A DNA stretch of 64,000 nucleotides from a phage: sequence record NC_135730.1. One strand, given 5' to 3'. The notes beneath the pieces are model-generated. The model did not search any database and was not told where the DNA came from. It saw nothing but the letters and a program-made list of their open reading frames with translations. How positions within the stretch are numbered: the stretch's first letter is position 1; each line of letters starts with the position of its first letter. Of the stretch, positions 59,995-63,855 are shown piece by piece. The position numbers and the translations under genes are program-made.

Positions 59995-60069
59995 GCCCTG
60001 TTAGCTTAGTGGATAAAGCAGCGGCCTTCTAAGCCGTTGACACTGGTTCGAGTCCAGTACGGGGTGCCA
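59995..60069 (+). tRNA. tRNA-Arg (anticodon UCU)
   Basis: manual cloverleaf; anticodon loop CTTCTAA; T-loop GGTTCGAGTCC; CCA present. Confidence 0.7.
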
Positions 60070-60073
60070 AATT

Positions 60074-60160
60074 GGGGAGTTATCCCGTAGAGGTAGCGGT
60101 GTAGACTGTAAATCTATTGTCATTGCGACTCGGGTGGTTCGACTCCACCACTCCCCACCA
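60074..60160 (+). tRNA. tRNA-Tyr (anticodon GUA), type II
   Basis: acceptor GGGGAGT/ACTCCCC; loop CTGTAAA; long variable arm; T-loop TTCGACT. Confidence 0.7.
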
Positions 60161-60274
60161 AATTTATATTTTTAGATGCATAAATAATACAGATAATGGC
60201 ATTGATATTTATCGTCGTTTATACTAGTCACTAACTGCTCGAAAATCAGTGTCATTATCAGTATAATTTATAAA

Positions 60275-60365
60275 GGAGGGTAGGGAGCAATGGTGCTCAA
60301 GCGGTCTTGAAAACCGTCCCGTTGAGGATGACTCGATGATGGTTCGATTCCATTACTCTCCGCCA
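60275..60365 (+). tRNA. tRNA-Ser (anticodon UGA), type II
   Basis: anticodon arm CGGTCTTGAAAACCG matches E. coli tRNA-Ser as recalled; long variable arm. Confidence 0.75.
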
Positions 60366-60463
60366 CATTGTTGACCTTGTAATTAAGCGAAAGCCGGAAG
60401 CAGAACCGGATTATCAAATGTTACAGTCGTCATCGCCGACTAGCAACATGGTCAACATACTGA

Positions 60464-60562
60464 GCTAGGTAAGCCCTTTGGCAAGGGCGAGGATTTTTAA
60501 TCCTGAAAATAGACGAGGTAGTCGTTGAATACATAGGTGGTTCGATTCCATCGCCTAGCACC
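60464..60562 (+). tRNA. atypical type-II-length tRNA-like gene, anticodon ambiguous (UUU or UAA)
   Basis: good acceptor, D and T arms; anticodon stem only 4 bp; about 29-nt variable region. Confidence 0.4.
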
Positions 60563-60567
60563 TTTTT

Positions 60568-60643
60568 GCTGATGTAGCACAATCGGTAGTGCAATTGATT
60601 TGTAATCAATAGGTTGTAGGTTCAAGTCCTGCCATCAGCACCA
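60568..60643 (+). tRNA. tRNA-Thr (anticodon UGU)
   Basis: all four stems pair cleanly; loop TTTGTAA. Confidence 0.8.
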
Positions 60644-60644
60644 A

Positions 60645-60719
60645 GGCCCTGTAGCTGGAAGGTTCAAGCAAGCGACTCATAATCGCCAGACGGTGGTTCA
60701 ATTCCACCCAGGGCCACCA
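60645..60719 (+). tRNA. tRNA with CAU anticodon (Met or lysidine-Ile)
   Basis: acceptor GGCCCTG/CAGGGCC; loop CTCATAA; T-stem GGTGG/CCACC. Confidence 0.7.
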
Positions 60720-60730
60720 AATAGTAAATA

Positions 60731-60807
60731 CTCCGCGTAGCTCAGCTTGGTAGAGCGCCTGATTTGGGATCAGGAGGTCGAGTGTTCGAATCACTCCGTG
60801 GAGACCA
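60731..60807 (+). tRNA. tRNA-Pro (anticodon UGG)
   Basis: C1:G72 first pair typical of bacterial tRNA-Pro; loop TTTGGGA; clean cloverleaf. Confidence 0.8.
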
Positions 60808-61174: not shown

Positions 61175-61215
61175 ACCCGCCCCGTTAGCTGCATAGCTGC
61201 GGGGTTTTTTCGTTT
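61175..61215 (+). terminator. rho-independent terminator
   Basis: GC stem around agctgcatagctgcgggg followed by TTTTTT. Confidence 0.5.
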
Positions 61216-61228
61216 CTGGAGCCTTAAA

Positions 61229-61627
61229 ATGATTTCAGTTTTAACATGGCTGAGTAGGTATAAAGGGATCATAAAAGGTTTAGTTTTTGCAGCTGCGATA
61301 GGTACAGCTTATCTTGGGGCCGTGTATTGGTTTAACTCTAAGCTTAATGATGCCTACCAGGAGGGTGTGTCAGCAACAGAGTTAAAGTGGGAACGGATCC
61401 TTGATCAGCAACAAAAGCAGGCCGACAAGATTAAAATGGGCCACGCAGAGGAGGTTAAAAACCTTGAAAAATCTCTTTCTGATCTGCAGGATAAATTAAA
61501 TATAGCTGAGAGGGCAGGTAGAGAAAAGCAGATTATCTACCTCCAATCACCTGAAGGTAAGAAGTCAACACTCCCTGATCAGCTTATAGATATTTATAAT
61601 GAGAGTATCAATCAGGAGGATCGATGA
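61229..61627 (+). CDS. i-spanin (Rz-like)
   Basis: N-terminal TM LVFAAAIGTAYLGAVYWF then coiled-coil; overlaps next gene start. Confidence 0.6.
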   Translation: MISVLTWLSRYKGIIKGLVFAAAIGTAYLGAVYWFNSKLNDAYQEGVSATELKWERILDQQQKQADKIKMGHAEEVKNLEKSLSDLQDKLNIAERAGREKQIIYLQSPEGKKSTLPDQLIDIYNESINQEDR

Positions 61628-61911
61628 GAGTTGCTGCACTGTTTATTGTGTGCTTTTTATTATGTGGGTGTGCAACCAGCGTTGAGAGAGAATACAAGAT
61701 TGACCCTCCAGATGTAGGAAGGTTGATTGTTAAACCCCCGGAAGGTGCCATGAAACCACCTGCTAAAGCTATGCCTTTGAAGAAAGGTGCTCCAGATGCA
61801 GTAAATTCTGGCATTATGAGGGATAATAATTTGTCTTGTAGCAATGATAGAGCTAAATTGATCATTTTGCAAGACTATATTAGAACACTGTTTCCAAAGG
61901 AGAGAGGTTAA
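61624..61911 (+). CDS. o-spanin (Rz1-like lipoprotein)
   Basis: signal plus lipobox FLLCGCATS; Pro-rich mature region. Confidence 0.6.
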   Translation: MRVAALFIVCFLLCGCATSVEREYKIDPPDVGRLIVKPPEGAMKPPAKAMPLKKGAPDAVNSGIMRDNNLSCSNDRAKLIILQDYIRTLFPKERG

Positions 61912-62336
61912 TGTCTAAGATTTACGGACCGTGTTCTGAAAAGCAGAAGATGATCCTCGAAAACGATGCAGATATTTTGGTAATCGGCGGTGCCGCAGGG
62001 TCTGGCAAGTCGTTCCTCTTGCAGTTGATGCCGCTTAAAATTATTGATGACCCCCACAGCTCTGTGGTTATGTTCCGAAGAACAACCCCACAGTTGGAAG
62101 GTGAGGGTGGGCTATGGCCTAAAGCAGTAGCTATTTATAGTGATCTGCCTGAAAACATTAAGCCAAAGTTCAGAGAGAAGGATCATAAGTTCATTTTCCC
62201 ACGGTTTGATCCGAGCACTGGCAAGTGGGATAGAAGCAAAAAGGGAGCTGTTGTAAAATACTGCCACATGGAGTATGTCCAAGATAAGCTTAACCATCAA
62301 GGTCTTGAGTACACCATGGTTTGCTTCGATGAGGGT
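61911..62336 (+). CDS. terminase large subunit, exon 1 (ATPase domain)
   Basis: Walker A GGAAGSGKS, Walker B MVCFDE; ends at intron 5' splice site. Confidence 0.8.
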
Positions 62337-62653
62337 TAATTTGTAGCTCTCGTAAAACCTCCCTAATTGCGGGGAAATCTTTACTATTAATACCACCAAC
62401 CTGTCATGGTAACATGATAGAGGCTTCGAAGAGAGATCGAAGGTATGGTAACAGTGTGTTAATTTAGATAATCCGCAGCGAAGCATCCGAGAGGATGAAC
62501 GTTCAACGACTAGTCGAAAGACGTAGAATCAAGCGATTCGAAACGGGAGGGTAAGCGGTTGTTGTCGCTTATAAGATATAGTCTGGTCTGCATGGAGACA
62601 TGCAGCTGCCTGAAAAATGGCGGGGCAAGACTAGCGACCTTGCCCGAACATAG
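62337..62653 (+). mobile_element. ORF-less group I intron in terminase large subunit gene (3' boundary +/- 3 nt)
   Basis: all four core elements in order: P AAUUGCGGGGAAA (about 62364), Q AAUCCGCAGC (about 62470), R GUUCAACGACUAG (about 62501), S AAGAUAUAGUCU (about 62573). Confidence 0.75.
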
Positions 62654-63778
62654 ACGACACAATTCGAATGGGAGCAGATAGACTATCTGATGTCTCGTCT
62701 GCGATCTCAGTCAAAGTATCCATCAAGAATGGTTATCAGCTGTAACCCCGATTCAGAACACATGCTTGCCAAACTGGTTAGATGGTGGTTGGACGATGAA
62801 GGGTATCCAGATCCGGAGAAATGCGGTAAGAAAAGATATTTTATCCGACGCGACGGTGAATTTATATGGGGAGATTCTAAAGAAGAGTTGATAGAGAAAT
62901 ACACCACGGTTAACGGACTGGGTGTGGAGATCAAGCCAAGACCGTTGTCATTCTCGTTTATAGGCGCAACAATATTCGATAATCCTGTTTGCTTAAGAGA
63001 CAACCCAGAATACCTTGCTTTCCTTGAAGGTCTGCCGGAACTGGAAAAAGCTCAGCTTCTTCATGGTAACTGGTTTGCAAAGCCTGAGGGTGCAAACTAT
63101 TTTCAAAGATCTTTCCTTCGTGATGCCGATAGAGTACCCCTTGGATCAGTATCTTGCAGGGCATGGGATAAGGCAGGAACCGAGAGAACTTCCGGTAATA
63201 AATTTCCTGACTTTACCGCCAGTATTAAGGTAAGTAAAGATAGCGACGGCTTTTATTACCTGTCCGGTGATTATTGTCCTGAGAACGTGGATGACGGGAG
63301 GTATTCCACAGGTCTGGAAGGCAAGTTCTGTAAAAAGGCTGGTGAACGAGATGTGATCATCAGGAAACAGGCGCAGTTTGATGGTGATGATTGCATAATC
63401 GTATTCTCTGTGGACCCTGGTCAGGCAGGTAAGAGTGAGTTCTTAACCTCATCCAGATCCTTGCTTGCCGAAGGGTTCAGGGTTGAAGAAGACCCAATGC
63501 CTTCCAACAAGTCTAAACTGACAAGGTTCTCACCTTTTGCCAATCTTGCCCAACAAGGAATGGTGAGGATTGTAAAATCCAGTTTCCATCCTGATACTCT
63601 GGAAGCATTTCTGACTGAACTTGAAAAATTCAACGGGGAAAGATCAACATTTAACAGAAAAGACGACTGGGCCGACTGTGTAGCTTCTGCGATTAATTTC
63701 CTAGAGAAAGAGGAGGTAGCACTTCCTTGTGTGATTCCATCAATCTCATCACCTTCTATGTTCAAGCGTTTTATCTAA
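62654..63778 (+). CDS. terminase large subunit, exon 2 (nuclease domain)
   Basis: frame open from 62654; nuclease-domain region IVFSVDPGQAGKSE; track ORF begins at internal Met 62690. Confidence 0.75.
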   Translation, partial: TTQFEWEQIDYLMSRLRSQSKYPSRMVISCNPDSEHMLAKLVRWWLDDEGYPDPEKCGKKRYFIRRDGEFIWGDSKEELIEKYTTVNGLGVEIKPRPLSFSFIGATIFDNPVCLRDNPEYLAFLEGLPELEKAQLLHGNWFAKPEGANYFQRSFLRDADRVPLGSVSCRAWDKAGTERTSGNKFPDFTASIKVSKDSDGFYYLSGDYCPENVDDGRYSTGLEGKFCKKAGERDVIIRKQAQFDGDDCIIVFSVDPGQAGKSEFLTSSRSLLAEGFRVEEDPMPSNKSKLTRFSPFANLAQQGMVRIVKSSFHPDTLEAFLTELEKFNGERSTFNRKDDWADCVASAINFLEKEEVALPCVIPSISSPSMFKRFI

Positions 63779-63827: not shown

Positions 63828-63855
63828 TAGCCCTCTGACGAGGGCTATTTTGTTA
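63828..63855 (+). terminator. rho-independent terminator
   Basis: agccctc-tgac-gagggct followed by ATTTTGTT. Confidence 0.55.

Follow-up and report, generated by a model that had tools for sequence, protein, structure and literature searches.

The gene encoding the large terminase subunit (terL) of the phage in sequence record NC_135730.1 is interrupted by a group I intron of 320 nucleotides (nt), which lies on the plus strand of the 64,000-nt stretch of DNA analyzed here (hereafter the window). Its sequence identifies it, very probably, as a functional intron of subgroup IA, similar to the td intron of T4, whose removal through two-step, guanosine-initiated splicing would generate the messenger RNA (mRNA) of a TerL protein of 515 amino acids (aa). 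The phage is an rV5-like Vequintavirus of E. coli with approximately 98% identity to slur16 and JohannBauhin, and its terL region is 97-98% identical to those of Vequintavirus phages including slur16, JohannBauhin and rV5. The intron is real, but it has already been annotated and published for rV5 and its relatives, and is an ordinary element. Kropinski et al. 2013 (Virol J 10:76, section "Introns in terminase") described the rV5 gene in three segments, one of which carries a homing endonuclease; the intron was inferred from BLASTX, and D. Shub is thanked for locating it. The GenBank entry of JohannBauhin joins terL from two pieces, and that of rV5 (ORF64ABC) from three.

Boundaries and RNA structure of the terL intron

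We performed the group I model search that the original prediction had proposed, and Rfam model RF00028 matched positions 62327-62605 (plus strand) over its entire length (model positions 1-253 of 253) with 84.1 bits (E = 6e-20), the gathering cut-off being 50 bits. The RNA fold of the intron region has a z score of -5.3 relative to shuffled sequences. Given these two values, the group I observation lies far beyond chance.

Exon 1 (61911..62336, plus strand, 142 codons) was delimited from the list of open reading frames (ORFs), a Pfam Terminase_6N match and an alignment to L005, an intron-less Vequintavirus contig. As described previously, the ATPase-side ORF (61911-62339) ends in ...MVCFDEG followed by a stop codon; this UAA (62337-62339) is in frame and constitutes the first three bases of the intron. 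The exon end, reported as GGGU, was located within GAGGGU at 62331-62336. A second long ORF, in a different frame, runs to 63778. The original prediction had the frame reopening about 315 nt downstream, and it does reopen at 62654, 317 nt past the exon end; this is not, however, the start of exon 2, which lies 3 nt further on. Exon 2 (62657..63778, plus strand, 373 codons and a stop) opens with TQFEWEQIDYLMSRLRS and is delimited by Terminase_6N and Terminase_6C matches and by the alignment of homologs across DEG-TQFEW. The intervening sequence was correctly described as ORF-less, since the ORFs that overlap it measure only 124, 50 and 40 aa and are all without a Pfam match. We also rejected an intein as an explanation, since the insert opens with an in-frame stop and carries no protein-coding signal.

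The exact ends of the intron follow from three observations. Uninterrupted homologs (50-99% identity, including P0001, P0003, P0015, P0022, P0051 and phage Murica) read DEG-TQFEW, with a single Thr; L005 and Murica align to the window up to 62335/6 and resume at 62657; and G62656, the omega-G of the 3' end ...GAACAUAGACG, is the same in all alleles and aligns to the terminal G of both the td intron and the intron of Pseudomonas phage fnug. The intron is thus placed at 62337-62656. Placement of omega-G at G62653, with exon 2 starting at 62654 (DEG-TTQFEW, 516 aa), was rejected on the basis of the single Thr and the resumption at 62657, and because G62653 is an A in the sister alleles, as it is in td and fnug. 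The predicted spliced junction reads ...GATGAGGGT-ACACAATTC..., that is, GAGGGU-ACACAA, with GGU joined to ACA.

The spliced terL encodes 515 aa (...MVCFDEG/TQFEWEQ...), the same length as the join-annotated GenBank proteins. The Walker A motif GAAGSGKS (residues 27-34), the Walker B motif MVCFDE (136-141) and the subsequent G142 are all carried by exon 1. The Pfam ATPase domain Terminase_6N (E = 6e-18) covers residues 25-295, with profile positions 2-104 in exon 1 and 110-211 in exon 2, and the nuclease domain Terminase_6C (E = 5e-6) covers residues 395-490, starting approximately 250 residues into exon 2; these residue numbers were obtained with a provisional 516-aa model and, after residue 142, are one higher than in the final protein. 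The proposal that exon 1 encodes the ATPase and exon 2 the nuclease was thus wrong in detail, since Terminase_6N spans the junction and the Terminase_6C match begins only at about residue 395. Rather than falling at the boundary between ATPase and nuclease, the intron halves the ATPase fold just past the Walker B motif. Nothing relevant was retrieved when the sequence of the spliced TerL was searched against the PDB.

The four conserved core elements listed in the original prediction are present in canonical order, as P (62365-62377, AAUUGCGGGGAAA), Q (62470-62479, AAUCCGCAGC), R (62501-62513, GUUCAACGACUAG) and S (62573-62584, AAGAUAUAGUCU). Minimum free energy (MFE) folding shows P1, P3-P6, P7.1/P7.2, P8 and P9-P9.2; P7, being pseudoknotted with P3, is invisible to this method and was checked by hand. 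We also compared the helices of the window intron to those of five others, namely the phiKZ-type gp71-73 intron of fnug, the second terL intron of phage RudolfGeigy, the T4-type td intron, the terL intron of Pectobacterium phage CB7 and the second intron of the window.

All helices described below lie on the plus strand. In P1 (62331..62351), exon sequence GAGGGU pairs with guide GCUCUC (62346-62351) at 6/6 positions, and the U62336.G62346 wobble marks the 5' splice site. The 5' part of the guide, AAUUUGU (62338..62344), is a candidate P10 partner for ACACAAUU of exon 2 (62657-62664), where 3 contiguous pairs would form (ACA with UGU, 62342-62344), or up to 7 if C62660 is bulged. P3 is formed by CCUCCC (62358..62363) and GGGAGG (62545..62550), paired at 6/6 positions in the MFE fold and in the hand helix table, and P4 by UUGCGGG (62367..62373, within P) and UCCGCAG (62472-62478, within Q), paired at 7/7; a compensatory change turns P4 into UUGCUGG/UCAGCAG in the fnug and RudolfGeigy introns. 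P5 and a large P5a/b/c-type extension (62374..62471) carry the hairpins CUGUCAUG/CAUGAUAG (62401-62420) and CUUCGA/UCGAAG in the MFE fold, the extension being a 59-nt insertion relative to the Rfam model. The P6 hairpin CAUCC-GAGA-GGAUG (62484..62497) was found in both the MFE fold and the helix table, as were P7.1 (GUC-GAAA-GAC, 62513-62522) and P7.2 (GAAUC-AAGC-GAUUC, 62526-62539), which together span 62513..62539. In P7, GACUA (62508..62512, within R) pairs with UAGUC (62579..62583, within S) at 5/5 positions of the helix table. Sequence pairing revealed the P8 hairpin UAAGCG-GUUGUUGU-CGCUUA (62552..62571) as well as P9.1 (CUGCC/GGCGG, 62606-62623) and P9.2 (GGCAAG/CUUGCC, 62624-62644) in the region 62606..62645, and, together with the Rfam alignment, the P9 hairpin CUGCAUG-GAGA-CAUGCAG (62588..62605), which has undergone a double compensatory change to CUAUAUG/CAUAUAG in CB7.

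P1 and P3-P9.2 are thus all fully paired in the window intron. All helices stay paired in the 6 introns compared, with P3, P7.2 and P9.2 differing in sequence in 6/6 and P7 being invariant; the helices were assigned by hand, which favors pairing. This pattern is what would be expected of a conserved ribozyme fold. Subgroup IA was reportedly defined by Michel & Westhof (1990) through two extra helices, P7.1 and P7.2, that separate P7 from the 3' strand of P3. The architecture and sequence of the window intron point to a td-like member of this subgroup, for which the label "IA2" is approximate given the absence of P2; this absence and the large P5 extension concern the periphery of the fold.

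Splicing and its alternatives

The claim that terL is interrupted by a group I intron is borne out by the full core, the U.G wobble and omega-G, and excision restores a frame that is colinear with the uninterrupted homologs. In the proposed mechanism, the terL message would be made as a single RNA, in which the end of the 5' exon, GAGGGU, forms P1 on the guide GCUCUC. Free guanosine held in P7 would attack after U62336; G62656 would then take its place in P7, and exon 1, now free, would attack after G62656, joining GGU to ACA in the mRNA of the 515-aa TerL. On unspliced RNA, ribosomes would halt at the UAA and release a 142-aa fragment that includes Walker A and Walker B and lacks the rest of the ATPase fold. 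The first start codon of exon 2 is an ATG at 62690 (M153 of the 515-aa protein), which has no Shine-Dalgarno sequence. Since the ATPase fold is split across the intron, unspliced RNA would give only the short fragment and exon 2 offers no start before M153, active terminase, and hence packaging, should require splicing, as the original prediction had it; we consider this a sound inference. The terL intron of CB7, a Certrevirus, was shown by reverse transcription PCR to be spliced (PMC7344957).

Several points weigh against this account. We found no RNA-level evidence for splicing of the terL intron in the literature for any Vequintavirus. The intron lacks the P2 positions of the Rfam model, with GUAAAA alone between P1 and P3, and P10 is weak, with its 3 contiguous pairs. 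Several Bastillevirinae introns with recognizable cores were spliced in vivo and not in vitro (PMC11878797). The intron could thus be spliced in infected cells while depending on the passage of ribosomes, on an RNA chaperone of the host or on a factor of the phage, and the in-frame UAA at its start, which places terminating ribosomes at P1, would be compatible with such a dependence. This alternative bears only on the "self" in self-splicing. We judge it rather unlikely, in view of the near-perfect consensus core and of the stabilizing P5abc-like, P7.1/P7.2 and P9.1/P9.2 elements; in addition, close relatives of the td type are classic in vitro self-splicers.

An account without any splicing, in which terL is truly split and two polypeptides, each translated on its own, combine into a functional terminase, is very improbable. 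Automated annotation gives two "terminase" proteins of 142 and 362 aa in many records, an ATG is available at 62690, and a non-splicing HNH insertion has been reported in CB7; a working split gene reportedly exists in Aeromonas phage Aeh1, whose NrdA is split by mobE. That ATG, however, lacks a Shine-Dalgarno sequence, its product would be devoid of the conserved TQFEWEQIDYL, and the break falls inside the ATPase fold, just past Walker B. Moreover, an unused ribozyme core with covarying helices would have no reason to be conserved, and the U at position -1 of the exon is strictly tied to the presence of the intron. Least probable of all, to the point of being negligible, is a decayed relic in a terL that is a pseudogene or an assembly artefact. 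The missing endonuclease ORF and two differences from most relatives (one more A in the loop of P9.1, and G in place of A at 62653) could be taken as signs of decay, but both differences fall at unpaired positions. The intron is a 100% match to the copy in the viable isolate vB_EcoM-Pr121LW and a 98% match to those of many independent plaque-forming isolates, which bear the same allele and whose depositors annotate a joined coding sequence yielding 515 aa. TerL is essential in tailed phages, and a dead gene is effectively refuted by the identical alleles in viable isolates.

Related introns and alleles at the terL site

The closest counterparts of the window intron are the first terL intron of rV5 (ORF64ABC) and those of BASEL phages such as JohannBauhin, which occupy the same site with the same flanks (GGT/...ACACAA), measure 319-320 nt, are approximately 98% identical and yield the same 515-aa join. 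The window copy differs from those of rV5 and JohannBauhin by the extra A in the P9.1 loop and by G instead of A at 62653. The T4-type td intron (IA2, phage RB5) is similar in its exon GGGU followed by UAAUU, in its P7.1/P7.2, P9, P9.1 and P9.2 architecture and in its end GAACAUA..G, with 81% identity over 79 nt of the 3' region; the T4-like nrdB intron is about 72% identical over intron nt 162-270. The td intron differs in that it resides in a thymidylate synthase gene, has a P2 and carries the GIY-YIG enzyme I-TevI in P6, whereas the window intron has no P2, a large P5 extension and no ORF.

Outside the genus, the closest relative is the intron in the phiKZ-type non-virion RNA polymerase gene gp71-73 of fnug (73% over nt 130-316), which is also ORF-less, of similar size and with the same P9-P9.2 region, and which shows compensatory changes in P4, P7.2 and P9.2; it differs by its gene and phage family, by the presence of a P2 region and by the absence of a P5abc-like extension. 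The CB7/phiTE intron (Pectobacterium phages, Vequintavirinae, Certrevirus) interrupts the same gene at the same Walker B motif and has a related 3' half (P7.2, P9 and a P9.2 loop with UUAGCGAC), but it is inserted 6 nt upstream (GVD/EGTQ versus DEG/TQ), carries an HNH ORF and scores below the Rfam gathering threshold. Group I introns are also found in the large terminase genes of unrelated tailed phages that infect Gram-positive bacteria, namely Lactobacillus phage LL-H (Mikkonen & Alatossava 1995) and Bacillus phage SIOphi; the SIOphi intron self-splices both in vitro and in vivo (PMC11878797, NAR 2025).

Within the genus, the site exists in three states: intron-less, with the ORF-less intron, or with an intron that carries an Endonuclease VII-family ORF in P8. 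Of the 119 matching records, 60 were sampled at even spacing: 31 of these were intron-less, 13 had the ORF-less intron of 319-320 nt and 15 a larger insertion, the last record being partial. The larger form in 241Ecol014PP is the same intron with a length of 883 nt and a 196-aa Endonuclease_7 ORF (PF02945, E = 2e-21) in P8; HeinrichReichert is another carrier of this ORF. In this phage (L003 2143-2727, corresponding to window 62552-62571), an unrelated stem of approximately 14 bp, GAAUGUGUAAUACU/AGUAUUUACACAUUC, replaces P8 of the window. Because the ORF-bearing stem is unrelated to the short hairpin of the window, ORF and stem would seem to be a separate, independently mobile cassette rather than the result of a simple deletion or insertion. 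The AUG of the ORF lies inside the 5' strand of the replacement stem and its stop runs into J8/7, an overlap that suggests translational occlusion.

The flanks of the site vary with its occupancy, through synonymous differences. Intron-bearing loci read GGT/...ACA CAA (5/5) and intron-less ones GGC ACG CAG (2/2), the intron-less site being GATGAGGGC/ACGCAGTTC. In the phage collection, perfect matches to the spliced junction were all split by the intron, and the unsplit ones, among the matches listed, have three mismatches; the exact spliced junction is not present in IMG/VR. An intron-less allele with intron-type flanks, which would represent a precise loss or a copy derived from complementary DNA, was found neither in the phage collection nor in IMG/VR. 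The base at -1 is U in all intron-bearing alleles and C in the intron-less ones, and it is required for function; the other two flank changes fit a co-conversion tract or target-site immunity. A requirement for the ACA/CAA flanks of exon 2 in P10 formation was also considered, and dropped because the intron-less ACG/CAG would pair about equally well via G.U. A clear function at the exon flanks is thus restricted to the U at -1.

No Pfam-matching ORF, and hence no homing endonuclease, is encoded inside the window intron, which cannot home on its own. Its persistence is probably due to clean splicing and to its interruption of the sequence targeted by the Endonuclease VII-family enzyme that the ORF-bearing allele encodes. 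More speculatively, and with considerable doubt, the ORF-less intron could serve as an "immunity allele" where co-infecting Vequintaviruses compete by means of endonucleases, by analogy with PhiPA3, whose gp210 cuts PhiKZ (PMC11620839). If so, intron-less rivals of an ORF-bearing phage would suffer cleavage of their packaging gene, and carriers of the ORF-less form would resist without paying for the ORF.

A second terL intron is present in rV5 and RudolfGeigy at GCAACCAT/ATTCGAT, corresponding to 62973/62974, a site that is empty in the window, JohannBauhin and Murica; these three have ACA for ACC just upstream of it. In rV5 (L002 2560-3541) this intron measures 979 nt and carries an HNH_3 ORF, and in RudolfGeigy (L004 1742-2012) it is an ORF-less element of 268 nt with an Rfam score of 95.6 bits. 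At the gathering threshold, Rfam missed all ORF-containing introns that we examined, namely intron 1 of 241Ecol014PP, intron 2 of rV5, that of CB7 and the second intron of the window; the lack of an Rfam match is therefore no proof that an intron is absent.

We note that approximately 18-25 GenBank records within MG065635-MG065690, labeled as Campylobacter jejuni phages (C2, C7, C14, A12a, A135, A141, A147 and others), are 97-99% identical to E. coli Vequintaviruses in terL and nrdD, and that these records show all three intron states. Their host label looks doubtful and possibly reflects coliphage contamination or mislabeling. Separately, the distant metagenome TerL homologs P0037, P0047, P0081 and P0088 (770-866 aa) have a big insertion inside Walker A (GAAG-C...N-SGKS), in some cases with Hint/LAGLIDADG Pfam domains, and these insertions are P-loop inteins. 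With inteins in the P-loop and introns at Walker B, selfish elements thus repeatedly target the catalytic motifs of the TerL ATPase.

Other features of the window and implications for Vequintaviruses

On the minus strand, a permissive Rfam scan picked up the second group I signal of the window, within nrdD, which encodes a class III anaerobic ribonucleotide reductase. This intron (35935-35174, minus strand, 762 nt) separates exons 37096-35936 and 35173-34211 and holds a 183-aa HNH/I-HmuI-like ORF (35875-35324); it scores just 35.3 bits because the ORF interrupts its core. It has a P1 of AUGGGU/GCUCAU, a td-like P3/P4 and the 3' end GAACAUAAUG. The Pfam NRDD profile is cut at the junction (1-263/264-562), and the spliced NrdD, with junction TSMG/CRSF, has 708 aa, the length of the intron-less NrdD of EdH4. 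When the intron-containing sequence was used as query, at least 80% of it was covered in just 17 of the 302 matching phage records, most Vequintavirus matches covering approximately 72% and being intron-less. Exon 2 of nrdD shows dense synonymous differences beside the junction.

terL adjoins the portal gene. Upstream of it, an i-spanin gene (61229-61627) overlaps an o-spanin gene (61624-61911, lipobox LLCGC), whose TAA stop shares its last base with the ATG of terL (TAATG, 61909-61913), an arrangement implying that lysis and packaging genes may be translationally coupled. Terminator-like hairpins lie upstream (61189-61202) and past terL (63828-63847). The spanin-terL block is preceded by a cluster of 7 transfer RNA (tRNA)-like genes (59995-60807, plus strand), with Arg-TCT, Tyr-GTA, Ser-TGA, Thr-TGT, Met-CAT, Pro-TGG and one odd member (60464-60562), a 99-nt "tRNA-???" to which ARAGORN assigns a 4-base anticodon and whose Rfam score of 29.4 bits is at threshold.

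The finding of the terL intron leaves current understanding unchanged. It adds to the cases in which group I introns reside where phage DNA-metabolism genes have their best-conserved motifs, in this instance right after Walker B of the packaging ATPase. Gene callers break terL into "terminase" pieces of 142 and 362 aa in many GenBank and metagenome records, the correct product being the 515-aa protein joined at 62336/62657. The three-allele polymorphism of this site provides a handy natural Vequintavirus system for homing, intron immunity and competition between phages.

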